The notes: generated by a model not told the origin, from the letters alone. A stretch of DNA of 64,000 nt from Candidatus Adlerbacteria bacterium (GCA_903851045.1 CAINNF010000015.1:32644-96643); one strand, 5' to 3'. Numbered from the stretch's first letter, positions 7,650 through 30,088 are shown. Numbers and translations are program-made.

Positions 7650-8190
7650 TCGGTCGTGTCGAATCACTCTCTGTTGTCACGAAGATACAGAGGTGACATG
7701 GGTCACGCAAGGACGCCAACAACATTCGTACTCTTGCTCACATTCACTCCGACAAGGTAGTATAGCGACGGAGGTACCGAATGTTTGCCGACTGGGCCGA
7801 CTGCTAGGTTGGCAATATGAATGTCTGGGGTGGGGGATATCCAGCCACGTGGTCAACAACCACGCGGAGCCGTATGCAGTAGGGGGTCATTTTGAGACCA
7901 GCGCTTAGCATACGCCTAACCATGCTTGGAGAGGATGGGTAACACCGCATACCTCCCGAGGGAGAAAGACTTGCGTCGCCCTAGACCGGGCCTATCGGCA
8001 TCGCTTTGGAGCGTCTCCTATACTAATCCGTGGGGTAACGGCTCACGGTTGGAGGTGTGCCGATCTTCTGGAATGGATCTTTGATGCAGGGGTGCAACAA
8101 CCAACCTCACCAAGGACGCGAAGTTCCGAGGAGCCACTATGGGGGCCAGTACGCCAACGAGCGTACGGCCCCCATACCTATGTCTATCTA
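7650..8190. other. Gene-free 0.55-kb tract between convergent genes; candidate structured/non-coding RNA locus (unassigned)
   Basis: No credible ORF on either strand. Several GC-rich hairpins are present (e.g. GGGGGCCAGTACG...CGTACGGCCCCC). The tract ends in a strong bidirectional terminator. Confidence 0.2.
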
Positions 8191-8194
8191 TGTC

Positions 8195-8237
8195 AAAAAA
8201 GAGTGCCTGTTGTCGTCAGACCAACAGGCACTTTTAT
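8195..8237. terminator. Bidirectional rho-independent terminator
   Basis: A-run, then GTGCCTGTTG-loop-CAACAGGCAC, then TTTT. It works on both strands. Confidence 0.6.
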
Positions 8238-8244
8238 ACTGTAT

Positions 8245-8664
8245 CTATATGTGATATTTTCTCCCCCGGCATCGGCCCGCGATCCGTTTTGCCTCTATCA
8301 TAGCTTCTCCCTGAAACACAAATATGCTCAAGTCTTTCCTGTGTAACCGGGCTGCACTTCTGAAAGCCCCGATGGTCGCATCTACCGGAGGAATGCCAGC
8401 CGCACGCAAAGCGTCGACTGCATGCTGCACCGTAGGGGTGACCCACCGATGATCGACTGCAGCCTTGATGTGTCTCGCATCGTTCATGGTCGCCACCATA
8501 ACCGTACCAAGACGTTGGTAGTGTGCCGCGATGATATCTAAAATCTGATCACGGGTGAGGGTTGGTCGGGATGGACTGGACGGAAGTGGCAGCCGGCGAC
8601 CACCAACCACTTTCTTAAAGGCCCTCTTGTACGGCGCACTGCCCCGTACACTTGTTGAGATCAT
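8245..8664 (-). CDS. Hypothetical protein (139 aa)
   Basis: AGGAG SD upstream of the ATG. No recognisable domain. Confidence 0.5.
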   Translation of the reverse strand: MISTSVRGSAPYKRAFKKVVGGRRLPLPSSPSRPTLTRDQILDIIAAHYQRLGTVMVATMNDARHIKAAVDHRWVTPTVQHAVDALRAAGIPPVDATIGAFRSAARLHRKDLSIFVFQGEAMIEAKRIAGRCRGRKYHI

Positions 8665-8697
8665 CGAGACTCTCCTGTGCGATTCTAGCGTTCGACC

Positions 8698-8928
8698 TTA
8701 GACAGCAAACTTAGATCGATAGAACGGATCGTTCCTTATGGTTTGGAGTACGATCTCTAGGACCCCTTCAGCCTCGACGTGCAAACGCAACACGCCTCGC
8801 CTCCGATCATCCGCTTCTCGTGTGATCGTCGCAGTGACCTGAACCTTAGGGACCGTCCTGATGAGCGAGAGCACTCCCCTTTGGTCGATCTGCGCTACAT
8901 CACGAAACGGTATGCACATGTCAGGCAT
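8698..8928 (-). CDS. Hypothetical small protein (76 aa)
   Basis: ORF only; weak support. Confidence 0.2.
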   Translation of the reverse strand: MPDMCIPFRDVAQIDQRGVLSLIRTVPKVQVTATITREADDRRRGVLRLHVEAEGVLEIVLQTIRNDPFYRSKFAV

Positions 8929-9034
8929 TGCCGTGCCCTCTTGATGATTGGAACGTCCTCTATGGACATAATACCGTGCTTTGTATAAAAAATCCCGCTG
9001 CGCTCAGAAAGAGCCGCAGCGGGGATATCGGACA

Positions 9035-9229
9035 TCACGGAAACTTTGCCTCGGCAAGGCGTGCGGATCGTTTCGCAGCCCTACGACTCTCTTCAGAAAA
9101 CCCAGGGCACAGGGTTCTCGCAGCATCGGGATGTGGCGCGGGTTCAGGAGAAACCGCGAGAGCCGCAGGAAGCGGATATCTGCGCGCACGCGCGAGACCT
9201 CGCAAAGCATCGTCGAGCGATTCACTCAT
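9035..9229 (-). CDS. Hypothetical small protein (64 aa)
   Basis: ORF followed on the minus strand by hairpin CCCGCTGCG...CGCAGCGGG plus a T-run (8988-9027). Confidence 0.25.
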   Translation of the reverse strand: MSESLDDALRGLARARRYPLPAALAVSPEPAPHPDAARTLCPGFSEESRRAAKRSARLAEAKFP

Positions 9230-9333
9230 TATCGCACACCTTGCACTGCGTGTTATCGTCGTCTCGATAGAGACATCTAACCTTATTGTACATACTGCGC
9301 ATGGGTCATGTCAATACCACCACACACGATATA

Positions 9334-9391
9334 TAAAAAAGACCGCCTCACCACGAAGACCTGCTTGGTGAGAGCGAGTCTTCGTAGTGAG
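9334..9391 (-). terminator. Rho-independent terminator for gene 9409-9699
   Basis: CTCACCACGAAGAC / GTCTTCGTAGTGAG stem, with a T-run on the minus strand. Confidence 0.45.
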
Positions 9392-9699: not shown

Positions 9700-9925
9700 A
9701 GGTCGTGTTTTCCTTTTCGGGCATCTCAACAGTCTGAGTGGTTGTGGGATTGGGAAGAACGATACCTAAAGAAAAACGTAACAATATTTTTAATATAATG
9801 CAAGACTATACCAGCACACATATATGGGTTACCCTGGAGCTGCTGCAGACACGCCGACCTTTCGATAGTATCGAGGGACACGGTAGCAACCCCATGGTGG
9901 GGCTTCTGCATGGGAGAACCTTTAC

Positions 9926-10933
9926 ATGATACGTCTACTAATCGTGGCCGCACTGGTGGTCGCGGGTCTGCCTGCTGCCTATGCGCAGCAGATCACCGGC
10001 GCGGGTGCGACATTCCCCGCGCCAGTCTATGCCAAATGGGGCGAGGCTGCGAAGGCTGCCCTCGGCATCGAGCTGAACTATCAGTCGATCGGGTCGGGTG
10101 GCGGTCAGAACCAGATCATCAACCGCACGGTCGACTTTGGCGCCTCCGACGCACCCATGGATGCGGCGAAGCTGGAGCAGAACCACCTGCTGCAGTTCCC
10201 CACCGTCATGGGCGCAGTCGTACCAATCGTCAACCTGCCGAGCATCGAAGCGAACAAGCTGCGTCTCACGGGCGAATTGCTGGCCGAGATGTATCTCGGC
10301 AAGATCACCAAGTGGAACGACCCGAAGCTCGTCGAGGCCAACCGCGGCCTGACGCTGCCGAACGTACCGATCGCGGTCGTGTATCGCGCCGATGGCTCGG
10401 GCACGACCTTTGTGTTCACGTCCTACCTCTCAGCCGTGTCACCCGACTGGCAAGCACAGGTCGGTGCCGACAAGAGCGTTAGATGGGCGACAGGTAACGG
10501 TGCCAAGGGTAATGACGGCGTCGCTGCGACGGTCAAACAGGTTCGCGGTGCCATCGGCTACGTCGAGTACGCGTACGCCAGGCAAAGCGGACTCATCACG
10601 ACGCAGCTGCGCAACAAGGCAGGGCGTTTCGTTGCTCCGACGTCGGCCGCCTTCAATGCCGCAGCCGCCGCTGGCGACTGGAGGGGTGCTCGCAACTATG
10701 CCGTGAACCTGATCGACACCGCTTCGCCCGAAGCCTGGCCGATCGTGTCGGCCACCTTCATCTTGTTGCCGAAGGACCCGAGTGACGCGAGCCGCAGTGC
10801 CACTGTCATCCGATTCTTCGACTTCGCCTACCAACACGGTGGCGATATTGCCAGAAGCCTCGACTACGTCCCGCTGCCCGAAGCCGTGCAAGCTGCGGTT
10901 CGCTCCTCCTGGCACACCGAGGTGAAGAAGTAG
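9926..10933 (+). CDS. pstS: Phosphate ABC transporter substrate-binding protein PstS (orphan; no pstCAB nearby)
   Basis: Signal peptide, GAGATFPAPVYAKW and SIGSGGG motifs typical of PstS. GGGAGA SD. Confidence 0.85.
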   Translation: MIRLLIVAALVVAGLPAAYAQQITGAGATFPAPVYAKWGEAAKAALGIELNYQSIGSGGGQNQIINRTVDFGASDAPMDAAKLEQNHLLQFPTVMGAVVPIVNLPSIEANKLRLTGELLAEMYLGKITKWNDPKLVEANRGLTLPNVPIAVVYRADGSGTTFVFTSYLSAVSPDWQAQVGADKSVRWATGNGAKGNDGVAATVKQVRGAIGYVEYAYARQSGLITTQLRNKAGRFVAPTSAAFNAAAAAGDWRGARNYAVNLIDTASPEAWPIVSATFILLPKDPSDASRSATVIRFFDFAYQHGGDIARSLDYVPLPEAVQAAVRSSWHTEVKK

Positions 10934-12600: not shown

Positions 12601-13044
12601 TCAGGTGGTCGGCGAATCGTCCCACGAGAGATAGAGGACGAAGTGCGGCATGGTCTCGTACACTTCAATGCCTGCCGATTGGCAGCGTCTGACGAACTCT
12701 GCGATGAGCTCATCCCAATGCTGCCCTTCAGACCTCCACGCATCAACGACGTCCGAGCAGTTGCCTGGCGAGTCGGCCGAACTCGTGATGCCGTAGTGAG
12801 TCTTAATGACGAGCAACGGAACTTCCCACTGACCTCGGAACTTCGCCCTCTGATGGCCGCGAATGTAGTGCTCGACCGTCTCCAGCCCTTCAGGCACGCC
12901 CTCTGGATAGAGGTACTGGAGCAGCCCTTCGCCCCACGAAAGGGTGTCGGTCCTGAACCGCATCAGGTGGTCGGGAACGCAGCAATCGTCATTTTCCGCG
13001 AGGATAATGCCATATGCTACGTACCCGTATATCAAGTTGGACAT
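12601..13044 (-). CDS. Hypothetical protein (147 aa)
   Basis: Start at MSNLIYG, with GGGAG SD. A comparable-length ORF on the opposite strand lacks an SD. Confidence 0.4.
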   Translation of the reverse strand: MSNLIYGYVAYGIILAENDDCCVPDHLMRFRTDTLSWGEGLLQYLYPEGVPEGLETVEHYIRGHQRAKFRGQWEVPLLVIKTHYGITSSADSPGNCSDVVDAWRSEGQHWDELIAEFVRRCQSAGIEVYETMPHFVLYLSWDDSPTT

Positions 13045-13136
13045 TTCGGACTCCCAAAATTTCAAACTAACCCAAATAGATATATACCACCTTATAAAGC
13101 AATTGTCAAACTCCGCGTAACGGATCAATAATCGCC

Positions 13137-13445
13137 TTACGGAAGAGCGGTTTTAAGAAGGAATGCATCAGCAATGGGTGGCACCGGGTCAGCGAGTCGG
13201 GGAACACGCTCTCGTATCGTATAGTACGCCGGCACCGTACCCGTAGGCGTAAACTCCCACGCGTATGATTGATTCTTATGATCGTTCATGACACGAACGA
13301 GCACTACCCTATGCGTATCCAGCCCCTTAAAATCTCGCATAGCCATTCGCAGAAGCTTCAACAAGTGAGCAGCGGATCTTCCTTGCGAGTTGGTTCGCAC
13401 GAGGCATCTATGCTCCGCTGGGCAATACTCCCGTATGTAGTCCAT
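13137..13445 (-). CDS. Hypothetical protein (102 aa)
   Basis: CAGGAGAACGGG-ATG SD/start arrangement. Confidence 0.45.
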   Translation of the reverse strand: MDYIREYCPAEHRCLVRTNSQGRSAAHLLKLLRMAMRDFKGLDTHRVVLVRVMNDHKNQSYAWEFTPTGTVPAYYTIRERVPRLADPVPPIADAFLLKTALP

Positions 13446-14270
13446 CCCGTTCTCCTGTAGGATCTGAAATCTGAAAATACGATACCAGAATATTCAAACT
13501 TTGTCTTGCTACCCCGTATGGTCCGGTACAGAATGGTTGATTGAGCACACATAAGCATACAACTCCAAAACACCCGTACTGTGGCTTTTTCGACCATCAC
13601 CATTCATAATCGACACAACGAGTCGAACGTTACACACTTCGCACCCAACACGGACAGGCTCAGAACGATGGACAGACACTCTTTTTCTTATTTGGTGACG
13701 ATAAAGAAGAGCGAGTTGCTCTTGCCTCGGGCGTTAGACACCGACACGTCATACGTACCAGGGGCGGCACAAAAACTAACGTAGTCTGACTACGTTACTA
13801 TCCCTCCTCTAACTCTTCTTTCGTACACATGCCCTAACTATAGCAACTTCGAGTCCTACCTACAGGACCAAAGTAACACACCATTGCACTACACTTATTA
13901 CTGATTAATGACGCCTCCCCATTTCCTCCGGTATAACTACTTTCGTAGAAAGTTGTAGGCCATGAGCGGCGCCCAGATAAGGAAGCTCGCGAAGCCAATA
14001 ATAAAAAAGGTTGGTACCAGCTGTTGGGGTATACCATCGCCCGTCCAAACAAGTACCAGGGAATGGGGAGGCGTCCAATTGATTCAGAACTCGTGTGGTG
14101 TAGTAATTGGTACCTACCATGCGACGCTGATTCGTGTGGTGGATGGTGGCCAACATTAAACCATGCAAAATCGTCATTAATTGGACGCCCCACCTTTTTT
14201 CTTATAGTAAGAACACTGCTTGTACATAGGTAAAAAGTCCCCACAAAAGTTTTGTATAAAAACAGCTTAT

Positions 14271-15236
14271 TTACTGAGCCTTGGAGGTGGCTTCAGCATA
14301 GTCAAAAATCCGGTGAACGCCATTGTATTGCTCTGGAGTGTAACTACGCAGCAACAGATTCTCATCACTCGATGAGATTCCATCTACTAATATCGGAATA
14401 TGGTGCTCTTTTATGGTAGTGATAATTTCATTTACTTCCAAAAACGTTGGACTGCCTATTCCCAAACCTCCCCAAGCTTCATAGTTACCCTTTTTTGTTT
14501 CAAATTCTAAATGTGGTGCAAAATATGGACCTGAGCAACCACCTCGACCACGACATATGGTGTACTGAGATGAATATAATTCCGCTTGTTTAACTTCCGT
14601 CCATTGAATTTTTTTAGCACCAACAATATCATCTCCGACTACAATTCCATCAGTACGGATTATTGTGTATGTATTAAAGAAAAGTATTGCAAGTAACAAC
14701 AAGGACCAAAGAATAATCCCGAATTCTAAAATACAAAGTAGGTCTTCCTTTAAGAAAAGTTTTGGAGTTCTCTTCCCACTTAAAATATATCGTTTCATTT
14801 GATGATGAAACCTTTCACGAGAGTTTAAAAACTGGTCATATTTCTTAAAGAAAATCTGAATGCACAACCTCCCAATAAGCCATATGGTTAGAGTTACAAG
14901 CCCTCCCAAAATGTACCCGAGAAAAAGCTCTCCAGAATTATCTACAGAAAAAGCTATATAGTTATTCTGAGTATAGAAATACCTCTGGAAAGCTGCGACT
15001 GGACCAAGACTAAAGAAAGCAATAACAAAAAAACAACACACAAGGGCTATGGAGGAGGTTGTTGGAATGTATTTATAAAACCATTTAACTGACACTTTTA
15101 TAGCTTCTGGCTGTTCTGTAAGTTGTTTTTTGGTCTTCTTGTTACTTCTATAAAACGAAATTAGCCAAGCCTCCACAACTGCCCAAACAATAAGTGCAAA
15201 ATAGAATGCTGCGGTTTGTAAATTTAAAATAGGCAT
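14271..15236 (-). CDS. AT-rich polytopic membrane protein with a C-terminal soluble domain (hypothetical)
   Basis: 321 aa at about 33% GC against a 58-62% host background. Four or five TM helices. Lies immediately 3' of tRNA-Asn. Confidence 0.55.
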   Translation of the reverse strand: MPILNLQTAAFYFALIVWAVVEAWLISFYRSNKKTKKQLTEQPEAIKVSVKWFYKYIPTTSSIALVCCFFVIAFFSLGPVAAFQRYFYTQNNYIAFSVDNSGELFLGYILGGLVTLTIWLIGRLCIQIFFKKYDQFLNSRERFHHQMKRYILSGKRTPKLFLKEDLLCILEFGIILWSLLLLAILFFNTYTIIRTDGIVVGDDIVGAKKIQWTEVKQAELYSSQYTICRGRGGCSGPYFAPHLEFETKKGNYEAWGGLGIGSPTFLEVNEIITTIKEHHIPILVDGISSSDENLLLRSYTPEQYNGVHRIFDYAEATSKAQ

Positions 15237-15288
15237 ACCCGCACAACAGACATACTGTAAATATTTTTAAGTTATCTGTCAAACTTTG

Positions 15289-15360
15289 CTCCGGCGGTAG
15301 GACTCGAACCTACAACCAACTCCTTAACAGGGAGCTGCTCTACCATTGAGCTACACCGGA
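15289..15360 (-). tRNA. tRNA-Asn (anticodon GTT); CCA not encoded
   Basis: Manual cloverleaf of the minus strand: UCCGGUG acceptor stem, D-arm GCUC-AAUGGUA-GAGC, anticodon loop CUGUUAA, T-arm GUAGG-UUCGAGU-CCUAC, discriminator G. Confidence 0.85.
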
Positions 15361-20287: not shown

Positions 20288-20863
20288 TCAAAAGGTCGGA
20301 AGGATGGTGTACGATCGCTCTCGACCCTTTCGCACCTTCACGTGTACGCAGCGCTCACTGGGCCTGATCTGTCGCAAAGATCGACGTAGTCGTGGGTACG
20401 CGAGCTTCTCGAGCGGATCCCCGGCAAGATCCCCCCACTCCGACACAAGCACGTACCCAAGCGTGATGGAGCGACACGACCCGTCCGTGTCCTCGAGGAC
20501 GGCGACGAAGATGAACTTCTCGTGTACCGTCGTGCCGTCAGGATAGTTGCATGCGAGGTCACGCACCCGGTCGAGCGTCGCCTGGCCGAAGGATCTGTTC
20601 ATGTAGCGAAGCGGGAGCACCGTCACGACACTCCCGACCCCACGATCGACGGCCGCGATGAAGTGCGCCTGATCCTGCACGCTGTAGAACAAAAGATAGA
20701 TGATCCTCGTGCCGGGCTTGCGACCGACAAAGACGAACTTATTCTCGTCGATCAACGCCCGCACCCGCTCCAACGGCAGGCGAAGCCGCTTCTGAGCATG
20801 CACTACCGCATGCCCCGTCGACACCGCTCTTTTCAACACGTCCTCCTGTCCCGTTTCGGGCAC
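20288..20863 (-). CDS. Hypothetical protein (191 aa); exact start uncertain (GTG or downstream TTG)
   Basis: ORF with CAGGAGGA near an alternative TTG start. No recognisable domain. Confidence 0.45.
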   Translation of the reverse strand: MPETGQEDVLKRAVSTGHAVVHAQKRLRLPLERVRALIDENKFVFVGRKPGTRIIYLLFYSVQDQAHFIAAVDRGVGSVVTVLPLRYMNRSFGQATLDRVRDLACNYPDGTTVHEKFIFVAVLEDTDGSCRSITLGYVLVSEWGDLAGDPLEKLAYPRLRRSLRQIRPSERCVHVKVRKGRERSYTILPTF

Positions 20864-20876
20864 GTCCCACTTTCAT

Positions 20877-20996
20877 TCAACCAAACAGCATTCTACACAA
20901 CATACCCAACTTGTGCACACGAGAAAGGCCTTCCGCGTTGTCGGATTCGACCAGCATAGGGTCTACATACTCGGCTCGTGTCACTGATTCGTTCAT
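20877..20996 (-). pseudogene. hsdR-derived relic: first 13 codons of hsdR fused to a segment matching hsdR near nt 22615-22642, then decayed
   Basis: Minus strand reads ATGAACGAATCAGTGACACGAGCCGAGTATGTAGACCCT. This is 36/40 nt identical to the hsdR 5' end at 24535-24574. It is followed by GTCGAATCCGACAACGCGGAAGGC, near-identical to hsdR 22615-22642. Its ATG sits 1 nt after the TAA stop of the upstream gene. Confidence 0.6.
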
Positions 20997-20997
20997 A

Positions 20998-22053
20998 TTA
21001 TGTTGCTATAGCCGCTTCGTGTCGTGCGCGCTCGACCATGAACCGCACCCCCTCGGACATGTTCTCTGCCTCGAGCTTGATGTCGGGATGCGCATGATGA
21101 AAGACTCGAAACACTTCGTCAGCGAATGCCTGCCCAACCGTTGGCACCTTGTCGAAGTCGAAGACGACATACTTGAACTTCTCCAGCCCCGTTAGCACAC
21201 GCCGCGCTTGGGAGCGAGAGATATGTACACCACCTATTGTATACAACTTCACGCGCACCTCGGTCTTGTCGAACCCATAGTCACTGGAGTCATCAAGGTT
21301 GGTGTACTTTTTAAATACGTCCTGCAAGTGTCGCTTGGACGTAGCCGAGAGCGTGAACGATACGCGCGTACCCCGCTTCATCTTCGACACCTTTTTCACG
21401 AACACATCTGGTGCTTTGTTGTCGACTATCAGCTGATATCCAAAACTGTCGAGGATGAACATATCAGCCACGCGCGAAGTAAAGAAGATACCTTCGCCCG
21501 AGTGCGACTTCGGCATCGTGGTTGTCTTACCTTTGAGAATATCTTGGATAGCCTCAAGTTCGGAGGCGAGGCCGCGCTGCCGCATCACGTTGCGAAACAC
21601 ACCGATGCCTGAATCTTGAATGACGAACGAGAGCGTCTTGTGGGGCACCGACACCTCGACCCCGATGCGCACTGACTGCGAGTGTTCGATAGCATTGTTG
21701 AACATCTCTGAAAACGCATACGTGAAGATACTCCGCACATTCTCAGGCAAATTCTCAAGCGTCGGGAATGCATGTTCTATCTGGTCGAGAACCTTGTGCT
21801 CTTCGAGCTGCTTGTTCGCAAAAGACTTAGCGTATCGAAGCGGCAAGATCTCTGGGTGCGCCCGAGCGTACTCGGGCAACACATAGAATGCATAGCGCGT
21901 CGCGCCAAACTTCATAAGCTGTCCATTGGCCACAAGCTCCTGGAGCAAAACGTGTATATATTGTCGCGACACGCCAAAGGAGTCTGAGAGTTCAGTCGAG
22001 GTTATCCTCCCCTTCTGCTTTGCCAAAGCAACTATATTTTCGGGTGTAATCAT
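20998..22053 (-). CDS. Winged-HTH - GHKL (histidine-kinase-like) ATPase - STAS-like (DUF4325) domain protein
   Basis: N-terminal wHTH (ITSTELSDSFGVSRQYIHVLLQEL). GHKL N-box EMFNNAIEHS, G1 IQDSGIGV, G2 SHSGEGIFF. C-terminal ...VFDFDKVPTVGQAFADEVF matches the STAS-like DUF4325 pattern. Confidence 0.7.
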   Translation of the reverse strand: MITPENIVALAKQKGRITSTELSDSFGVSRQYIHVLLQELVANGQLMKFGATRYAFYVLPEYARAHPEILPLRYAKSFANKQLEEHKVLDQIEHAFPTLENLPENVRSIFTYAFSEMFNNAIEHSQSVRIGVEVSVPHKTLSFVIQDSGIGVFRNVMRQRGLASELEAIQDILKGKTTTMPKSHSGEGIFFTSRVADMFILDSFGYQLIVDNKAPDVFVKKVSKMKRGTRVSFTLSATSKRHLQDVFKKYTNLDDSSDYGFDKTEVRVKLYTIGGVHISRSQARRVLTGLEKFKYVVFDFDKVPTVGQAFADEVFRVFHHAHPDIKLEAENMSEGVRFMVERARHEAAIAT

Positions 22054-22231
22054 AATGGTATCGACAAGTCATTGTCAACCAAAGTATATTCTATTGTCAA
22101 CCCATTGTCAACCAGCCACATCACACGCACCTGTGAATAAAAAGGGTACTCAGCACACTGCCAGACTCTACCCCTGCTCCGTCTCCCAAATTTTTATTTT
22201 CATAGAGTACTGTATATCCCCAGACTAGTAA

Positions 22232-24574
22232 CTATTTAGAATATAGCCCGATTTGAAAAGCGAAAAACTGCGAACGAATAGCGTCCACGTCCCCGAGTAC
22301 CTGTTCGGCGTCTGAGAGCGCATGATATTTAAGATTAAGAAGCACTGGCAACTTCTCCTCACCAAGTTCCATGTCGCCCCCCTCCTCGTACTTCTTGAGA
22401 ACAAACGACAGAAACTCTTTTTGTGCTCCGCTCACTGAATCAAGGATGGTGCTTTTGTTGCGCTCCACTCTGTCCTTTCGTGTTATTGGTCGTGTTGCGA
22501 ACGAGACATATGACAGCACATCAAACAGGTCGCTGTTTTCGGCATCAATCATTTTCTGCAACGTTTCCAACTCATCACGACCAAAACCAAGCTCGGCGAT
22601 ACGATCGAGAAATGCCTTCCGCGTTGTCGGATTTGACCAGATGTTTCGAAGCTCTTCTTCATTCTTAAAGAACTCGGGCATCGCACCAAACATATTTTGA
22701 ATAAACTCTTCGGCAGAGATTGGCTTACCGTCTGCACCCCAAAACGAAGTCGAGATCATGTACTGGATTTCTCGCTCCTTGCCGTCTCTGAGTTTGATTA
22801 TAATTTTCTTTTTCTGTTCAATAGGCTCTGGAGTTTGTTCAGGCTCTGTGTGCTCCCTGCGCTCTTTTGGCTTCTTGGGAGTACTGGGTTCCACATCCTC
22901 TGCCTCAATCGGCTCGCCATCCCACTCTGGGTCAGCGAAGTGTTTATACGCATCCACGAAATCGTAGATCGTAAAATACTCCTTACCGTCAAACAGTCGG
23001 GTGCCGCGACCGACAATCTGCTTGAACTCAATCATTGAGTTCACAGGACGCATCAAGACAATGTTTCGCACATTGCGAGCATCCACACCAGTCGACAACT
23101 TTTGCGAAGTGGTGAGAATGGTCGGAATACTCCGCTCGTTATCCTGGAATTCGCGCAAAAACTGCTCGCCGCGGGCTCCATCGTTCGCCGTGACACGGAC
23201 GCAGTAGTTCGGGTCGGTGCTGTCTTTCATCTGATTCACCAAATCGCGCACCGCGAGCGCGTGCGTCTGATTGGCACAAAAAATAATAGTCTTCTCGTCT
23301 TGGCGTATTTCATCAAGCACGATACGTACGCGCTTGGCCTCGCGCTCTTTGATCTCAATAATCCTATTAAAATCCGCTTCTTCGTATATCTTACCCTGCT
23401 CTACTTCACCCTCGACTACCTCGTCGTCCGACGTGTACACATAGTCGTCCAAGGTCGTCTGGATGCGCTTCACTTTAAACGGCGTCAGGAAGCCGTCATT
23501 GATACCCTGCTTGAGCGAGTAGGTATAGAGCGGATCACCGAAATACTTGTAGGTGTCTACATTGTCGACGCGCTTCGGGGTCGCCGTGAGACCTAGCTGT
23601 ACCGCTGGAGCAAAATAATCGAGGATGCTGCGCCAGTTGGATTCGTCGTTCGCTCCCCCACGGTGACATTCGTCGATAATAATCAAATCAAAAAAGTCTG
23701 CCGGATAATCGCCAAAATACGGCGTATTGTTTGACCCACCCTGCGGTGAGGTACTCGAACCCGTCATGAACGTCTGAAAAATAGTAAAGAATATGCTCCC
23801 GTTGGTCGGGATTGCGCCTCGCTTGCGGATCTCGAGCGGGTTAATACGTACAAGTGCATCCTCGGGAAAAGCGGCGAAAGCATTGTACGCTTGGTCTGCA
23901 AGAATATTTCGATCGGCCAAAAAGAGCACTCGCGGGCGACGCTTGCCATCGCGCTGAAGTGTCCAACGGGCTTGGAAGATCTTCCATGCGATCTGGAATG
24001 CGATAGTCGTCTTCCCCGTCCCGGTCGCGAGCGTGAGCAGGAGTCGCTTCTTGTTTTCGGCGATAGCATCGAGCGCGCGATTGATAGCAATCTCTTGGTA
24101 GTATCGCTTGCCATACTCACCCTCAAGAGGGATCGAAGCGAATGTCTCCTTCCACTGCGCCGTCTGTGACTCCTCGTGGCCAAACAGCTGCGCCCACAAC
24201 TCCTCAGGTGTTGGGAACTTCTCGACATATTCCTCCTTTCCACTCTTCATCGACACACAATAAATCTCTCGACCGTTGGTCGAATAGGTGTGCTCGATTT
24301 GGAGCTTCTCTGCGTACGCCTTCGCCTGGGCGACACCTTCGGTCGCAGGCAGGTCGAGCGCTTTCGCCTCCACCACAGCGAGCTTCTGGTTCTTGTACAC
24401 CAACACATAGTCCGCGATCTCGGGTTTGGCGCGCACGCCACCCGTCTGGATCTTGCCGTCCGTAATGCGAAACTCGCGCAACACGCGCGACCCTTCCACC
24501 TCACCCCAACCGGCTTCCTTGAGCTTAGGGTCTACGTACTCGGCTCGCGTCTCTGATTCGTTCATTAAAACCAT
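22232..24574 (-). CDS. hsdR: Type I restriction enzyme R subunit (compact, 780 aa)
   Basis: N-terminal PD-(D/E)xK nuclease motif (D...VVEAK), Walker A LATGTGKT, DECH box (IIDECHRG), helicase motif VI (QIVGRGTR). The true start may be the second ATG (MNESE). Confidence 0.9.
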   Translation of the reverse strand: MVLMNESETRAEYVDPKLKEAGWGEVEGSRVLREFRITDGKIQTGGVRAKPEIADYVLVYKNQKLAVVEAKALDLPATEGVAQAKAYAEKLQIEHTYSTNGREIYCVSMKSGKEEYVEKFPTPEELWAQLFGHEESQTAQWKETFASIPLEGEYGKRYYQEIAINRALDAIAENKKRLLLTLATGTGKTTIAFQIAWKIFQARWTLQRDGKRRPRVLFLADRNILADQAYNAFAAFPEDALVRINPLEIRKRGAIPTNGSIFFTIFQTFMTGSSTSPQGGSNNTPYFGDYPADFFDLIIIDECHRGGANDESNWRSILDYFAPAVQLGLTATPKRVDNVDTYKYFGDPLYTYSLKQGINDGFLTPFKVKRIQTTLDDYVYTSDDEVVEGEVEQGKIYEEADFNRIIEIKEREAKRVRIVLDEIRQDEKTIIFCANQTHALAVRDLVNQMKDSTDPNYCVRVTANDGARGEQFLREFQDNERSIPTILTTSQKLSTGVDARNVRNIVLMRPVNSMIEFKQIVGRGTRLFDGKEYFTIYDFVDAYKHFADPEWDGEPIEAEDVEPSTPKKPKERREHTEPEQTPEPIEQKKKIIIKLRDGKEREIQYMISTSFWGADGKPISAEEFIQNMFGAMPEFFKNEEELRNIWSNPTTRKAFLDRIAELGFGRDELETLQKMIDAENSDLFDVLSYVSFATRPITRKDRVERNKSTILDSVSGAQKEFLSFVLKKYEEGGDMELGEEKLPVLLNLKYHALSDAEQVLGDVDAIRSQFFAFQIGLYSK

Positions 24575-24629
24575 TATGCAACGCGGCAGATTTTATGTAA
24601 ATGACCCACAGGCGACACATGAACACCCC

Positions 24630-25022
24630 TTAAAAGAGATGTTTGTAGGCTGGGTAATTATTCTTAATGATCTGCTGCCACTCTGCTGTTTCGTTGTGCC
24701 CGCTGAGATCCGTCTTGGTATACACGAGCAGCACCGACACCGACTGCTGCTGCTTGTGCCACGCGACTATACAGCGATTCCCCGACGTCTTAGCAGACTC
24801 TTGTGTCCCAGCAACACGAAACTTCGTCTTGATGATCAATATATCACCAGCATCACACACCGTCTCAGCCCTGCTCGTTAAGATGAGTGCATCGATGCGC
24901 TCAAGCTCTGCCATAATCGCGAGCAACGTGACGTCCCATTTCGCCTTGTATTTCTTTGAAAAACTTTTGATAAAGTGACGCTCGGCAAACACCTCGATAT
25001 TAACAGCATTATTGCCTGGCAT
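24630..25022 (-). CDS. Putative toxin partner of the adjacent PanA-like antitoxin (130 aa; RelE/ParE-like fold suspected)
   Basis: Small basic protein 7 nt downstream of the HTH-DUF4065 gene. The ...RCIVAW...VSVLLVYTKTD pattern loosely resembles the RelE/HigB C-terminal strands. Confidence 0.4.
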   Translation of the reverse strand: MPGNNAVNIEVFAERHFIKSFSKKYKAKWDVTLLAIMAELERIDALILTSRAETVCDAGDILIIKTKFRVAGTQESAKTSGNRCIVAWHKQQQSVSVLLVYTKTDLSGHNETAEWQQIIKNNYPAYKHLF

Positions 25023-25029
25023 ATATGCG

Positions 25030-25722
25030 CTAGAACACCTCGTCGGGGTCCTCTTGGGTGATCAGTTCGTACGGAATAATTTCGTCCATGCGGCACAGCA
25101 CATAGGGCAGCTGATTGTGCGTAAACGTAACGATCTCCTGCGTCTTTTTATCTTTCCACTTCGCGGCGATCTTCTTGAGTAACGCTTGCTCTTTGGGTGA
25201 CACTGTTTGTATCTTTTCGTTCCTATTACTCTCTGACTCACCGACCAAGAACATCTCCTTTCCGTTCTCATTCTTGTGGTCGATCACGATCTTACCATCC
25301 TGCTCGAGCTCATCAAGCGCGCGAAAGAACGCATCCGGCACGGGGCCGTATGCGATCTTGCGATATGACATACCACTCATGCTCTCCATGTGCTCATAGA
25401 ACCAAGCGAAGTCCGCCAAATAGAGCAGCTTCGCGAGCTTGGTCTTGGGTATCTTACCGTCTTTCGACAGGTTCATGCGTAGATAGAGCAGCAACATCTG
25501 CTTGTACTTGGCGATGTTCGGAATATTCCCTGACAATAACTCGTCGACAGTGATACCAAACAAACTCGCCAGCTTCTGAGCTTCGTCAGTATCGAGCTTC
25601 TGCTTACCCACCTCGATGGCCGTATACGTGGGACGAGACACCCCAATAGCCTTCGCCACCTGCTCTTGGGAAAGCTTGTGGGCGACGCGAAGCTCCTTGA
25701 GCTTTCGCATATACGTATTCAT
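25030..25722 (-). CDS. HTH_XRE + DUF4065 (Panacea domain) protein; PanA/SocA/GepA-like antitoxin
   Basis: N-terminal Cro/C1 HTH (LRVAHKLSQEQVAKAIGVSRPTYTAIEVGKQ). C-terminal KTKLAKLLYLADF...AYGPVPD matches the DUF4065 signature (KLxKLLY...GPV). Start set at the internal ATG after a TM-less, low-complexity over-extension. Confidence 0.7.
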   Translation of the reverse strand: MNTYMRKLKELRVAHKLSQEQVAKAIGVSRPTYTAIEVGKQKLDTDEAQKLASLFGITVDELLSGNIPNIAKYKQMLLLYLRMNLSKDGKIPKTKLAKLLYLADFAWFYEHMESMSGMSYRKIAYGPVPDAFFRALDELEQDGKIVIDHKNENGKEMFLVGESESNRNEKIQTVSPKEQALLKKIAAKWKDKKTQEIVTFTHNQLPYVLCRMDEIIPYELITQEDPDEVF

Positions 25723-26053
25723 ACCCAAAAGTGTATACGAACCATGTAAAGAAGTCAAGCGATTTTGGTCGAAATATTGACGTACAGATTCTGAAGCGTA
25801 AAATATGTCTACTGGCATGGTCGAGCCAGGTAAGAACAAGTGATCAAATCGTAATAACATGAGTAAGACAAACGGAATCAGAAGCAGTAAGAATCTCGCT
25901 AGTAAAGCGGCGAAAGCTCTTAGTAGTGGTAGCACCAGCAAGAACACAAAGTCCCTTGCTGCAAACACCCTCGGCAACAGAGCAAAAAAGAGTCACTAGA
26001 CGGAATGAAACTATGCAAAAATCCACACTATGCCAAGTAGGGTGGATTTTACT

Positions 26054-27244
26054 TTACAACTCCCCTGCGAATGCCTGCTGCAAAATCGACTTCTTGAGCT
26101 CATCCAAACAAGCCAACTTCTTGGCATAGATCTCCTCCAGCTTTTTGGTCTCCCCCGCCAAAGCATCCAACTTTTTAACTATCGCTTTTTGTTCTGGAAA
26201 AGGCGGCAACAGAAACTCAAAGGCAAATAGATGCTCTCGATTTACCTTTGGCATACCGGCTCTATCCGAACCCAAAATTGCATACTTAGTGAAACCAGAT
26301 GTTAATAGTAGATAATACAAAAAATCTCTATTCAATGTTTTTTCGTCGGGCAATAGAGGATATATGTCCGCACTGCACAGTCCGTCAAAATCTGGCCTAA
26401 CTACTTTCATTAAGTATGGTCGTATTTTGCTGTATAACACCATATTCTTATCAAAAATAAACTTTCCAGAAATAAGTTTTTCTTCTTTTGCTGTCTTAAC
26501 ATCAATAAGCTCTCCTGTCTTTGCTTGAATATTTCCAGCTCCAACGTGCCGCATATTTAGAAACCGCTTCTCCCTCGGGTCGACCAGTTTTGAAGCAATC
26601 GCGCACACAGTATCTAGTCGAATTAATTTCCATCCCTCCCCCGGATTAGCAAAAACACCTTGTAAATAAGACTCAAAAAGCTCGCGGGAATTCTGCAAAT
26701 TCTTTTCTGTGTTCGCTTTCGCCTTTTCAATTTTCTCAAAAACTTCATCCAGAATTTTCACAATCCTCTTTTGCTCGGTTAGGGGTGGGAGTGGAATTTC
26801 TATTTCGCCCAAATTTTTACGACTAATTCTTGTTCTTGTCGTCCCACTAGTTTTTCCTGCAACTGCATCTAAGTAGAGATTTGATTGAGAATAGTAATTA
26901 AAATATCGGGGAATAATTTTTAGTGGATCAAAACGAGCAATACTACAATCAACCGCAGTTATCATTCTTTCCCCGGTATTTGGCAAAATACATGCACGAC
27001 CTACAGGGTCGGGCAGACGAGAGATCAGGCAGTCGCCTTTAAAAATTTCGGTGCACCTCAATCTGTTAAATGTCTTTTCCGAAATATAACGCGCCTTCTC
27101 TCCCCTGTCTTTGAAAACACCGACACCTACGTTGCCGGTCTGGATAAGACGAATTCCATCTCTCGATTGATCCTTACTCTCTATCCAATTACCATCCGTA
27201 AAGACCTTACAGACTTCACCTAGTTTCTTTGTTTGTAACATCAT
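26054..27244 (-). CDS. hsdS: Type I restriction-modification specificity subunit (two TRDs)
   Basis: Conserved central and C-terminal repeats (LPPLTEQKRIVKILDEVFEKIEKAK... / LPPFPEQKAIVKKLDALAGE...). The start overlaps the upstream gene's stop as ATGA. Confidence 0.9.
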   Translation of the reverse strand: MMLQTKKLGEVCKVFTDGNWIESKDQSRDGIRLIQTGNVGVGVFKDRGEKARYISEKTFNRLRCTEIFKGDCLISRLPDPVGRACILPNTGERMITAVDCSIARFDPLKIIPRYFNYYSQSNLYLDAVAGKTSGTTRTRISRKNLGEIEIPLPPLTEQKRIVKILDEVFEKIEKAKANTEKNLQNSRELFESYLQGVFANPGEGWKLIRLDTVCAIASKLVDPREKRFLNMRHVGAGNIQAKTGELIDVKTAKEEKLISGKFIFDKNMVLYSKIRPYLMKVVRPDFDGLCSADIYPLLPDEKTLNRDFLYYLLLTSGFTKYAILGSDRAGMPKVNREHLFAFEFLLPPFPEQKAIVKKLDALAGETKKLEEIYAKKLACLDELKKSILQQAFAGEL

Positions 27245-28218
27245 ACGTATTGAGCCTTGTTTTCTTCGCAATGTTTTTTTACAAAATTAAACCAGTTTTC
27301 GTACCAATACCATGTCTTTTCAATTTCTACCCCAAACCCTTTAGACAGATCTTTTGCATTTTCGCTTTTCCAAAGCTGTGTATGTTTATGTAATCCAAAC
27401 CGGGTATACCCAATCTTGTTCATTTCGCTAACTATTTTTTTGGGCAAATATTTTGGCTTTTCTTTATCTCTAAAAGCCCAATACTCTTTATTTAGGCCTT
27501 TTGCTATTTCAGAATTTGGATCCACAAACTCTATCACCTTATCAGCTTGACCTTTTCTATTTGCAGTCTTTGGGACAAACAAGACTCTATAAGAAAATCT
27601 ACTATTATTGAACTCATCCTCAGGCAGTCCTTCATCAAACGCCTCAATATATGTGGCAATATTACTAGGAAGATCTTTATAATCTGAGAGCTGATTAATT
27701 TGTTTCTCACTTAGTGAGGAGAATTGTAAACTGAATGAAAGGTGCTTTTCGATACTTTTTTCGTTCGGAAATAATTTTTTTAGATACTCATTATAATTCA
27801 AGCAGCAAGCCTGAAATCTTGCACTTAAAAGATCGTCTATTCTTGTAGTCATCTGATGTTCGATTTCGTGCCTAAGACCTATCAGAAAAAGCAGGTTGGA
27901 CACAGCAACCCTGTCGATTGGTGATTTTTTATCATTCAAGCACCGTTCAAGTTCCCAATATTTATAAGCACCATTCTTTGTAAAATCAAACTTCCTGTTT
28001 TTGCCTTTTTGCTCAAAATACCTATATTCAATTTTCTTGCTACGATAGTACGCATGCAACAGATATGTCCACGCAATAATTGCTAGCACTATAAAAGATT
28101 CGGATTTAAACTGAATATTTGGATTATTAAAAACTTGAACAGCTGTCAATATAGACTCTTTCGATTTTAAGATTAGTTCGTCTTTGACTGAGTGAAGCTT
28201 TCTCTTTCTCTTTGCCAT
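27241..28218 (-). CDS. AT-rich hypothetical protein embedded between hsdM and hsdS; candidate HEPN-motif (Rx4H) Abi-like protein
   Basis: 325 aa at about 33% GC, 6 nt downstream of hsdM, with ATGA coupling to hsdS. Contains LIGLRHEIEHQ (R-x4-H). The HEPN assignment rests on this one motif. Confidence 0.5.
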   Translation of the reverse strand: MAKRKRKLHSVKDELILKSKESILTAVQVFNNPNIQFKSESFIVLAIIAWTYLLHAYYRSKKIEYRYFEQKGKNRKFDFTKNGAYKYWELERCLNDKKSPIDRVAVSNLLFLIGLRHEIEHQMTTRIDDLLSARFQACCLNYNEYLKKLFPNEKSIEKHLSFSLQFSSLSEKQINQLSDYKDLPSNIATYIEAFDEGLPEDEFNNSRFSYRVLFVPKTANRKGQADKVIEFVDPNSEIAKGLNKEYWAFRDKEKPKYLPKKIVSEMNKIGYTRFGLHKHTQLWKSENAKDLSKGFGVEIEKTWYWYENWFNFVKKHCEENKAQYV

Positions 28219-28224
28219 ACGGTC

Positions 28225-29688
28225 TTATATTTTTCCTCCAAGCTTACCCGTGATTACGGAAATTTCTTTATCAAGCGCTTTCATTGCTTTTAAAATCTCC
28301 TTAGGGCTGCGCAGCGTCACTTCCCCGCCTTTGTTGGGGTTCTTGACTGAGAGGTCAAAGGTTTTTGGGTCTATGTCTTTAGCGTCCACGCTCCAGGAAT
28401 TTTCGGAGTCGGCTTTGGTTTTTTGGAGCTTCACGAAGTCGGCGAGGTCGGCTTCGCTCAGTGGATTTGTTTTACCGAGGTTGCGTGGGAGGTTGAGTTG
28501 GTAGAACCACACCTTGCGGGTTGGTTTGCCTTTTTCGAAAAAGAGGACGACTGTTTTGACTCCGGCACCTTGGAAGGTCCCGCTCGGGAGGTCGAGGATG
28601 GTGTGGAGGTTGCAGTTCTCCAGCAAAAGCTTGCGCAGGCTCACCGAGGCGTTGTCGGTGTTAGAGAGGAAGGTGTTTTTGATGACGATGCCAGCGCGGC
28701 CGCCAGCGCGGAGAATTTTGATGAAGTGTTGGAGAAAGAGGAAGGCCGTCTCGCCTGTTTTGATAGGGAAGTTTTGTTGGATCTCGCTGCGGATACCCGC
28801 GCCAAACGGCGGGTTGGCGAGGACGATGTCATAGCGGTCTTTCTCTTGGATGTCGGCGATATTTTGTGCGAGGGTGTTGCCGTGCACGATGTTGGGCGCT
28901 TCGACGCCGTGGAGGATCATGTTCATCGTGCCGATGATGTAGGCGAGCGATTTTATCTCTTTGCCATAAAAAGTCTTCTTTTGGAGCGTCACCCAGTCTT
29001 TTGGTTGCAGCTTCTCGGTGTCCCCTTTCATGTAGACGAACCCTTCGGCCAAGAAGCCCGCCGAGCCGACTGCCCCGTCGTAGACGGTCTCGCCAATTTT
29101 TGGATCAACGACTTTGATGATTGTGCGGATGAGCGAGCGCGGCGTATAAAACTCGCCACCGTTGCGTCCCGCGTTGCCCATGTTCTTTATCTTGTCTTCG
29201 TAGAGGTGCGAGAGCTCATGCTTTTCGGAGTCGGTGCGGAAATGCATCGTATCGACTATGTCGAGGATGTTGCGCAGCGTATAGCCGCTCTGGATCTTAT
29301 TCTTCAACTCGCTAAATATCTCCCCTATTTTATATTCGATAGTGTCAGGACTCTCGGCACTCGCTTTAAATTTCTTGAGGTATGGGAATAGGTCACGATC
29401 GACGAACGTGTTGAGGTCGTCGCCCGAGAGTGCTTTATTGTGGTCGAGTTTGCCCTGTGGCGTCTTGGGTGCTGCCCAGACCTCCCAGCGGTACTGTGGC
29501 GCGATGATTGGTTTGTAGGCTCGGCCGGAGAGCTTCGCCGCTTTCTTCTTTTCTTCCTCCAAGTCGTCGAGGTACTTGAGGAAGAGGATCCACGACGTCT
29601 GCTCGATATAGTCGAGCTCCGTCCCCACCCCCGCGTCGCGGTGGAGTATGTCGTCTATGTTCTTAAACGCCTGCTCAAACATGTTCAA
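28225..29688 (-). CDS. hsdM: Type I R-M N6-adenine DNA methyltransferase subunit
   Basis: NPPFG catalytic motif (VLANPPFGAG), an AdoMet-binding region, and the N-terminal HsdM helical domain. Confidence 0.9.
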   Translation of the reverse strand: MNMFEQAFKNIDDILHRDAGVGTELDYIEQTSWILFLKYLDDLEEEKKKAAKLSGRAYKPIIAPQYRWEVWAAPKTPQGKLDHNKALSGDDLNTFVDRDLFPYLKKFKASAESPDTIEYKIGEIFSELKNKIQSGYTLRNILDIVDTMHFRTDSEKHELSHLYEDKIKNMGNAGRNGGEFYTPRSLIRTIIKVVDPKIGETVYDGAVGSAGFLAEGFVYMKGDTEKLQPKDWVTLQKKTFYGKEIKSLAYIIGTMNMILHGVEAPNIVHGNTLAQNIADIQEKDRYDIVLANPPFGAGIRSEIQQNFPIKTGETAFLFLQHFIKILRAGGRAGIVIKNTFLSNTDNASVSLRKLLLENCNLHTILDLPSGTFQGAGVKTVVLFFEKGKPTRKVWFYQLNLPRNLGKTNPLSEADLADFVKLQKTKADSENSWSVDAKDIDPKTFDLSVKNPNKGGEVTLRSPKEILKAMKALDKEISVITGKLGGKI

Positions 29689-29713: not shown

Positions 29714-30088
29714 CTATTCCCCCGCCAGTTCGGTGTACTTTTTGTGGTTGCCTTTGGATTTTTCTACCGGGTATTTTGCTTCGTTCTTTTGGAGTTTGTC
29801 GAGGAAGGCTTGGGAGACGTCGATGTGGAGGTCGTTGGCCATCAGGAGCACCCAGTAGAGGACGTCCGCTAACTCTTCGGCGATGTCTTTGGAGTTGGAG
29901 ATGACGTACTGCTCGATCTCCTGTGGGCTCTTCCACTGGAAGTGTTCGAGCACTTCGGCGGCCTCCAGCGTCAGCGAGATGGCGAGGTCTTTGGGGTTGT
30001 GAAACTGCTTCCAGTCTCGCGCGTCGCGAAACTCACGCACCTTCTTCGTAAGGTCTTTGATGTTCGACATATGCACATACTCTACCAA
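29714..30088 (-). CDS. MazG-like nucleotide pyrophosphohydrolase
   Basis: EAAEVLE...ELADVLYWVLLMA EExxE/D helices typical of the MazG/NTP-PPase all-alpha fold. 25 nt upstream of hsdM. Confidence 0.65.
   Translation of the reverse strand: MVEYVHMSNIKDLTKKVREFRDARDWKQFHNPKDLAISLTLEAAEVLEHFQWKSPQEIEQYVISNSKDIAEELADVLYWVLLMANDLHIDVSQAFLDKLQKNEAKYPVEKSKGNHKKYTELAGE

Follow-up and report, generated by a model that had tools for sequence, protein, structure and literature searches.

A putatively self-regulated winged-helix, GHKL and STAS-like protein in the hsdS–hsdR slot of type I restriction–modification operons

The closest described counterparts of the protein analyzed here are the partner-switching pairs RsbW–RsbV and SpoIIAB–SpoIIAA. 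We examined a 64,000-nucleotide stretch of DNA from Candidatus Adlerbacteria bacterium (GCA_903851045.1 CAINNF010000015.1:32644-96643), hereafter the window, in which a minus-strand gene encodes a 351-residue protein that joins an N-terminal winged helix-turn-helix (wHTH), a GHKL domain of the RsbW/SpoIIAB type and a C-terminal STAS-like domain. In contrast to the described pairs, both partners are located in one chain behind the wHTH, and no sigma-factor or phosphatase gene is linked to them. The STAS-like domain belongs to a separate Pfam family, DUF4325, lacks the N-terminal β-hairpin, and carries a conserved Gln at the predicted phospho-acceptor position. Rv1364c of Mycobacterium tuberculosis combines an RsbU phosphatase, an RsbW kinase, and an RsbV-like STAS domain in a single chain and acts in the SigF network. 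It differs from the window protein by its PAS and PP2C domains, by the absence of a DNA-binding domain and of an operator array, and in not being a mobile cassette.

Type I restriction is known to be controlled mainly at the level of protein, by restriction alleviation and HsdR proteolysis. To our knowledge, every control described for HsdR in type I systems is post-translational, and a transcriptional controller has not been described for them. In Patescibacteria, restriction–modification (R–M) is the dominant defense. A parallel in gene order is found in type II systems, where a self-regulated HTH gene with operators in its own promoter lies directly 5′ of the endonuclease gene, as does our gene in the embedded operons described below. 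The encoded controller (C) proteins are XRE-type HTH dimers of ~80–100 residues that recognize inverted C-boxes. The window protein falls outside this class, as it is a 351-residue multidomain wHTH protein with ATP-binding and STAS modules, direct repeats at an 11-bp phase, and a type I system as its partner. A second parallel is type I cargo such as prrC in EcoprrI and the rlo genes of Campylobacter, which likewise occupies an intergenic slot whose contents vary between related operons. Unlike this cargo, our protein has no anticodon-nuclease, ABC-ATPase, or Toprim domain, and its gene has its own operator-controlled promoter and often survives alone.

The repeats in the promoter resemble the sites of PhoB/OmpR-type wHTH proteins, being direct, of ~11-bp period, on one helix face, and overlapping the −35 element; binding to them is predicted here. 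Their division into two clusters that flank the core promoter recalls parC of plasmid R1 (ParR–parC). The protein differs from PhoB/OmpR and ParR in lacking a receiver domain, a partition ATPase, and a ribbon-helix-helix fold. Its STAS-like domain is coupled elsewhere to a potentially toxic partner: transcriptional coupling of stand-alone DUF4325 genes to the VapC-like PIN group PIN.4 has been reported (Matelska et al. 2017, PMC5499597). In that case the DUF4325 gene is paired with a second gene for a PIN nuclease, whereas our protein carries a GHKL domain as a fused partner. A 112-aa DUF4325 open reading frame (ORF) is listed in a Francisella prophage accessory region (PMC7924643). Our literature search found no study of the wHTH–GHKL–DUF4325 architecture, and in full texts DUF4325 is mentioned by three papers, each time in passing. 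What is new here is a partner-switching module fused to a self-operating wHTH in a type I R–M slot.

Position in type I operons

The gene is part of a minus-strand island with the order MazG-like gene, hsdM, DUF3644 gene, hsdS, XRE-HTH/SocA-Panacea gene plus a 130-aa ORF, hsdR, the wHTH–GHKL–STAS-like gene, and an hsdR relic. By its GroEL, the organism belongs to the Patescibacteria, close to Adlerbacteria and Kaiserbacteria. The features of the gene and its flanks are the following.

22232..24574, minus strand: resident intact EcoAI-type hsdR, start probably at Met4 (24565), now upstream of the cassette
22060..22113, minus strand: operator array of four phased direct repeats, TTGACAAT-like, spacing 11/22/11 bp
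22104..22113, minus strand: repeat R1, GGTTGACAAT
22093..22102, minus strand: repeat R2, GGTTGACAAT
22071..22080, minus strand: repeat R3, GGTTGACAAT
22060..22069, minus strand: repeat R4, ACTTGTCGAT
22083..22111, minus strand: sigma-70-type promoter, −35 TTGACA within R1, 17-nt spacer containing R2, −10 TATACT; 11/12 matches
20998..22053, minus strand: coding sequence of the wHTH – RsbW/SpoIIAB-like GHKL – STAS-like (DUF4325) protein, 351 aa
21859..22053, minus strand: N-terminal wHTH, residues 1–65, recognition helix beginning at the conserved S29-R30-Q31-Y32
21343..21771, minus strand: GHKL (Bergerat-fold) domain, RsbW/SpoIIAB type, residues 95–237
21682..21708, minus strand: N-box, within the GHKL domain
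21601..21615, minus strand: G1, within the GHKL domain
21475..21534, minus strand: ATP-lid/G2, within the GHKL domain
21001..21270, minus strand: C-terminal STAS-like domain (DUF4325), residues 262–351
20920..20996, minus strand: hsdR relic of 77 nt in two joined pieces, beginning 1 nt past the stop codon of the gene

There is hsdR sequence on both sides of the gene, as the original prediction had stated, and the spacing given there is confirmed. The upstream hsdR encodes an EcoAI/FtnUII-type subunit (NCBIfam, E 4e-244), and its stop codon at 22232–22234 is separated by 178 nt from the ATG at 22053. On the other side, the first piece of the relic (20996..20957) corresponds to hsdR nt 1–40 counted from Met4 and is identical to the resident hsdR at 37/40 positions, while the second (20954..20920) corresponds to nt ~1926–1960 with 33/35 identities. 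The window copy is a rearranged derivative, preceded by an intact hsdR and followed only by the 77-nt relic.

The undisturbed arrangement is found in other contigs. A metagenome scan that required the C-terminus of the gene followed by an hsdR-like start returned 24 contigs, and by this design shows that the arrangement exists and is widely spread, not how frequent it is. In L147, L153, L155, L160–L162, and L164, the stop codon is followed directly by an intact hsdR, the gene order of C proteins, which is not seen in the window. The embedded HsdR subunits have about 764–780 residues and are 69–73% identical to that of the window. The gap between the gene and hsdR is a few nucleotides (1 nt in L164, the sole junction read base by base), and the two genes are probably co-transcribed in these operons. 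In the embedded contigs hsdS precedes the operators, and the longer contigs have hsdM (76–78% identical) further upstream. The full order in L164 is hsdM – AAA_15/AAA_21 ATPase – hsdS – ~70 nt – R1–R4 – gene – TAA C ATG-hsdR (780 aa) – PDDEXK – XRE/Panacea – ORF. Both intergenic slots thus differ from those of the window: between hsdM and hsdS, L164 has the AAA_15/AAA_21 ATPase (7460..9364) and the window a DUF3644/PDC-S19 gene, and between hsdS and hsdR, L164 has this cassette and the window an XRE–Panacea pair.

Several solitary copies carry traces of the same operons. Past their stop codon the sequence reads stop-N-ATGAAYGAATCAG..., which translates as MNES/PETR, the N-terminus of HsdR, and a decayed stop-N-ATGAAYGAR junction is present in the window, L002, L003, L007, L034, and L087. 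A 35-codon hsdM relic in L020 is 80% identical to the intact hsdM that follows the gene in L023. At least 12 further contigs form a decay series in which the gene is intact between C-terminal relics of hsdS upstream and 5′ relics of hsdR downstream. In a neighbor-joining tree, copies of all three kinds (embedded, relic-bearing, and solitary) are mixed throughout a crown clade, which we define by an identity of at least ~55% and TTKACAAT operators; the deeper branches are all solitary. The intact operons, the relics, and the interleaving in the tree lead us to place the native, presumably ancestral, position of the crown clade in the hsdS–hsdR slot of EcoAI-type type I systems. The conserved 3′ end of hsdS and 5′ end of hsdR probably act as homology arms, and exchange through such arms would explain the relics on escaped copies. 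The relics of hsdS and hsdR on the flanks are a record of the exchange of cargo between R–M operons and of its escape from them.

The cassette itself is compact, extending from 22113 to ~20990 on the minus strand, and contains the promoter with its operators and one gene. DNA homology to the distant copies L002 and L087 runs from 22113/22112, at R1, to 20976/20989, within ~20 nt of the stop codon. The closest relative, L085 (1..1371), shows 92% DNA identity to the window copy from codon 55 to the stop. Over codons 55–351 the two differ by 52 synonymous and 14 non-synonymous codons, which argues for purifying selection on the window copy. In the wHTH of L085 (codons 1–54), 82/162 nt differ from the window, and the promoter is ~50% diverged and cannot be aligned at the 92% level. 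This pattern indicates a mosaic, probably formed by a recombination that swapped the DNA-binding module.

A junction of the same kind is observed in L091/L092 (9056..9060), where truB starts 1 nt past the stop codon of the homologue with the sequence TAA-T-ATGAA, as before hsdR. It hints that cassettes may relocate by microhomology at the stop-N-ATGAA junction. At the window locus, orf191 (20288..20863), 3′ of the gene, is not conserved beside close homologues. A stem at ~22135–22170 after hsdR, suspected to be a terminator, was not called as one in the scan, so read-through from hsdR into the cassette may occur.

Operator array, domains, and ATP site

The leader of the window gene reads GGTTGACAAT-g-GGTTGACAAT-agaatatacttt-GGTTGACAAT-g-ACTTGTCGAT-accatt-ATG. 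The −35 element within R1 is perfect, the promoter is the top match of the region in a promoter scan, and R3 and R4 are positioned between the −10 element and the ATG. Tandem repeat pairs of this kind occur twice in the window, both at this promoter, against 0.10 expected by chance. Nearly all homologues from the 80 genomes surveyed below share the order [R1 R2] pair, −10-like TATAGAT, [R3 R4] pair, and ATG, with the TTGACA-17-TATAGA(T) geometry kept and repeat spacings close to multiples of 11 bp (11/22/33). Some loci have three pairs, and arrays of 2+2 or three pairs precede homologues from the candidate phyla radiation (CPR) to the Firmicutes. In 1.11 Mb, 161 exact phased pairs lie in the genes' own promoters and 3 elsewhere, compared with 0 in shuffled sequence, and the 3 outside pairs all belong to one duplicated promoter in L044. 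In that contig (8650..8700 and ~9900..9990) the array and promoter copy lies 1.3 kb upstream of the gene, with a hicA/hicB-like pair between the copies.

Divergent subfamilies keep the geometry with other repeat words (TTGACATAG, TTGACAAC, TTTACGGT, and CATTACACT; AGTTAAAAA in Lachnospiraceae), and changes of the word tend to go together with changes in the SRQY recognition helix. These observations point to binding of the repeats by the wHTH and to autoregulation of the gene, probably as repression, because R1 and R2 cover the −35 element and the spacer, and R3 and R4 cover the start site and the leader. The 64-kb window and the 1.1 Mb of homologue flanks yielded neither a second operator array nor a wider regulon.

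Pfam finds all three regions of the fusion described in the original prediction: wHTH families at residues 6–46, HATPase_c/HATPase_c_2 at 95–237, and DUF4325 ('STAS-like') at 282–336. The N-box, G1, and G2 motifs noticed before are intact. Among 111 representatives of 35–64% identity, N119, N120, and H124 of the N-box, D147, G149, and G151 of G1, and G186 of G2 are invariant, and E116, K174, K176, T178, T179, and G188 are conserved in at least 90%, so the motifs are not degenerate. In hhalign they fall on the N-box, G1, and lid of SpoIIAB with a probability of 91%. The N-box, G1, the G2 glycines, and the fold place the domain in the GHKL superfamily; it is compact and single, and closest to SpoIIAB/RsbW by structure and motif spacing. 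Its earlier description as a GHKL ATPase was correct for the ATP-binding motifs and is refined here to the RsbW/SpoIIAB anti-sigma/Ser-kinase type. We rejected the MutL/MORC/paraMORC/gyrase type, in which an S5-fold transducer is expected.

The C-terminal domain has the β-α-β-α-β-α order of a STAS fold and a conserved S279-R-S-Q-A-R-R motif. Q308, at the start of helix α2, is conserved in at least 90% of the sequences, and T305, in the loop before it, varies (T/V/L/M/I). The start of helix α2 is the likely position of the SpoIIAA/RsbV phospho-serine, a mapping from topology only, since the hhalign comparison of the domain with SpoIIAA was not significant. The conserved phosphorylatable Ser/Thr that STAS partners of RsbW/SpoIIAB have at this position is not found in the family.

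No informative full-length match to the protein was obtained in NCBIfam, PADLOC, a PDB sequence search, INPHARED phages, PLSDB plasmids, or BFVD, and no defense family of PADLOC-DB v2 matches it at E <= 0.01.

Distribution of the family and possible functions

The family is very large: at 90% identity the protein has matches in more than 6,478 clusters, of which the best 120 are full-length, 65–87% identical, and drawn from many CPR lineages. At 50% identity, 685 clusters match at E <= 1e-30, nearly all of ~340–350 residues. Another clade, with more than 4,000 proteins (90% identity clusters), is centered on Lachnospiraceae and prophages. Source annotations name these proteins only as 'DUF4325/STAS-like domain-containing' or 'anti-sigma regulatory factor'. 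The Lachnospiraceae copies are chromosomal singletons or prophage morons; the morons of L136–L138 (7001..8050) have their own promoter and a strong terminator and closely precede terS. A Tad2-like gene (anti-Thoeris family) is found in these prophages a few kilobases downstream of the homologue (13502..14695). IMG/VR contains 39 distant relatives, several of them beside terminase, lysis, or integrase genes.

Genomic neighborhoods were surveyed in 80 species-representative genomes, an unbiased sample, and in the annotated contigs of 5 close homologues. In the unbiased sample the gene is usually solitary, with its own promoter, among housekeeping genes. All-against-all clustering of the ±5 neighbors at the 80 loci revealed no conserved partner, no sigma-factor gene occurs among the conserved neighbors, and the upstream gap almost always exceeds 40 nt. 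In a Pfam census the ±1 neighbors are mainly housekeeping genes (enolase, DnaE, ClpP, RuvB, S15, LeuRS), with Fic in 4 and ResIII in 3. A tblastn census with the R–M proteins of the window, which missed short relics, located type I genes within 10 kb at only 4/80 loci (L023, L045, L057, and L074). Neither the Pfam census nor PADLOC detected an excess of defense genes among ±1 neighbors (52 PADLOC families) relative to control genes 6.5–10 kb away (112 families). Among the annotated contigs, P0053, P0078, and P0042 have no defense gene immediately adjacent, and P0042 has methylase, GmrSD, and Fic genes 3–7 kb downstream; in P0002 unannotated genes follow and the contig ends just upstream. In L087 the homologue is at the edge of a type IIS/Mrr/DUF3644 island (DUF3644 at 8339..9355).

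The largest neighbor cluster, with 7 loci, consists of Fic/SoFic-like proteins, which are not paralogues of our protein. These Fic proteins have a C-terminal wHTH and lie at most 3 genes away in 7/80 loci (L008, L022, L024, L053, L054, L074, and L080), with varying position and strand. Four ±1 neighbors match PADLOC SoFic, with E values down to 3e-107; SoFic has no match among the 25 far-control families listed.

An enrichment near R–M or defense genes, which would favor a role in these systems, is therefore absent for the family as a whole (no excess in 80 genomes); the crown clade shows recurrent embedding between hsdS and hsdR. The unbiased survey alone would have rejected the R–M link; it was the relics and the intact operons that changed the picture for the crown clade. 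The family as a whole is not an R–M accessory, because its members are mostly solitary, have no conserved neighbor and no defense excess, and are singletons or morons in Lachnospiraceae. The proposed link of our gene to the R–M system is borne out as a repeated physical association with the same type I family. It does not extend to driving hsdR by co-transcription in the window.

We propose that the crown clade is a self-contained cassette whose protein represses its own promoter, contains an ATP-dependent GHKL–STAS switch, and controls hsdR in its native slot, a proposal for which we see the chances as evenly balanced. The wHTH would bind the repeats head-to-tail on one face of the DNA, with R1/R2 over the −35 element and spacer and R3/R4 over the start site and leader, resulting in self-repression. 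The RsbW-like domain would bind ATP and engage the STAS-like domain, either within one chain or between the chains of a dimer, as in RsbW–RsbV and the fused Rv1364c, and this engagement could render DNA binding, or a kinase or protein-binding output, dependent on a signal. In the native slot hsdR would be co-transcribed from the self-limited promoter, and the protein, like a controller protein, would determine how much of the restriction subunit is made or when. A broader version is tentative and, in our view, rather less than probable: the family would be a transcriptional controller of type I R–M, an ATP-binding partner-switch wHTH that acts through four operators on a promoter shared with hsdR and gates HsdR after transfer or stress. 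The same controller module may double as an autonomous, exchangeable cassette, possibly addictive or phage-responsive, which would explain why the gene outlives the surrounding R–M genes.

Several observations weigh against control of hsdR. Binding to DNA, ATP use, kinase activity, and the direction of regulation are all predicted from sequence. The embedded operons came from a scan that selected for an hsdR-like start, and in the unbiased sample an intact type I gene is adjacent in only 1/80 loci (L023), plus the window, most copies lying beside housekeeping genes. Across intact operons the divergence of the protein does not correlate pairwise with that of HsdR (r = −0.11), so co-divergence is rejected and cassette alleles have been swapped among related operons rather than co-evolving with hsdR; such swapping fits exchangeable cargo equally well as a dedicated regulator. 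The conserved Gln at the predicted phospho-acceptor position, with no conserved Ser/Thr, makes a classical phosphorylation switch of the STAS domain doubtful. In Lachnospiraceae prophages the gene, with its own terminator, behaves as a moron. Since the intact hsdR of the window precedes the cassette and a relic alone follows it, the two are transcriptionally uncoupled there. As it is nevertheless under purifying selection, the window copy must have an additional function independent of R–M.

In the main rival explanation, the adjacency to hsdR would reflect a cargo slot and not regulation. Here the gene would be R–M-embedded defense cargo of the PrrC or fused toxin–antitoxin kind, with the RsbW-like domain as a latent kinase or protein-binding effector held by the STAS domain in cis. 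Inactivation of the type I enzyme by phage counter-defense, or binding of a phage protein to the STAS domain, would free the effector, and the wHTH would only limit expression. This explanation fits the variable contents of the operon junctions in the window and L164, the shuffling of alleles independently of hsdR, the persistence of an intact gene after the R–M genes decay, and the prophage morons with their own promoter and terminator. High conservation across CPR classes, which suggests horizontal transfer, points in the same direction, as do the predicted autorepression, which when tight is typical of toxin–antitoxin modules, and the reported coupling of stand-alone DUF4325 to the VapC-like PIN group (PMC5499597) and its presence in a prophage accessory region (PMC7924643). 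It is opposed by the lack of any PADLOC model for the protein, by immediate neighbors that are mostly housekeeping genes and contain no more defense genes than controls 6.5–10 kb away, and by the fact that toxic activity is not known for RsbW-type domains. Taken by itself we consider it fairly unlikely. Cargo and controller are not mutually exclusive, and the cargo explanation fits slot variability, shuffling, morons, and persistence equally well. A role in controlling hsdR, or as an R–M-linked effector that might back up restriction, is plausible.

The solitary position of most CPR and Lachnospiraceae copies among housekeeping genes, and an architecture that joins a transcription factor to a sensor module, would also suit an ordinary stand-alone one-component signaling regulator with targets elsewhere in the genome, which entered R–M islands by accidental insertion into these recombination-prone regions. 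We regard this as improbable. Against it, neither the 64-kb window nor the 1.1 Mb of flanks contains a second array. The stop-to-hsdR junction is seen repeatedly throughout the crown clade, with an accidental occurrence of ~6e-5 per locus by a rough estimate that must be read with the smaller number of independent events under shared ancestry. A core regulator would not usually show the patchy, horizontally transferred distribution and the mosaic wHTH. A phage origin, with the protein acting as a DNA-tethered anti-sigma factor whose RsbW-like domain binds a host or phage sigma factor while the wHTH reads the −35-like TTGACA/TTTACA repeats to modulate transcription during infection or lysogeny, is very improbable. 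It would fit the anti-sigma factors that are the closest structural relatives, the −35 consensus in the operator core, and the 39 relatives on IMG/VR contigs (several directly upstream of terminase genes); against it stand a terminator between the gene and terS in L136, no match in INPHARED phages, PLSDB plasmids, or BFVD, chromosomal CPR copies, and no sigma-factor gene among conserved neighbors.

If the proposed control of hsdR is true, type I restriction would gain transcriptional control from a dedicated, signal-responsive regulator located between hsdS and hsdR, which would also provide a testable answer to how type I systems establish in new hosts, especially in Patescibacteria. The family, being very large, without literature, and equipped with a clear cis-element, offers a compact model for partner switching in one polypeptide.

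Neighboring genes in the window

The slots of the resident operon hold genes of their own. The DUF3644 gene between hsdM and hsdS (27241..28218, minus strand) has a PADLOC match in the candidate family PDC-S19, with an E value of 3e-162. The interval between hsdS and hsdR (24630..25977, minus strand) contains an XRE-HTH + SocA/Panacea antitoxin-like gene (25030..25977, minus strand; a 230-aa product according to the gene caller of the assembly), followed by the 130-aa ORF, which has no family match. Together they look like a toxin–antitoxin pair of the PanA type, and homologues of both are located downstream of hsdR in L164. Directly 5′ of hsdM, on the same strand, is a gene for a MazG-like nucleotide pyrophosphohydrolase (29714..30088, minus strand).

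Two stretches of the window, 13000..15300 and 22000..29000, have a low GC content of 0.37–0.48, compared with ~0.56 for the window, and were probably both acquired horizontally. The second corresponds to the R–M island, and the first holds a 321-aa multi-pass membrane ORF (14271..15236).

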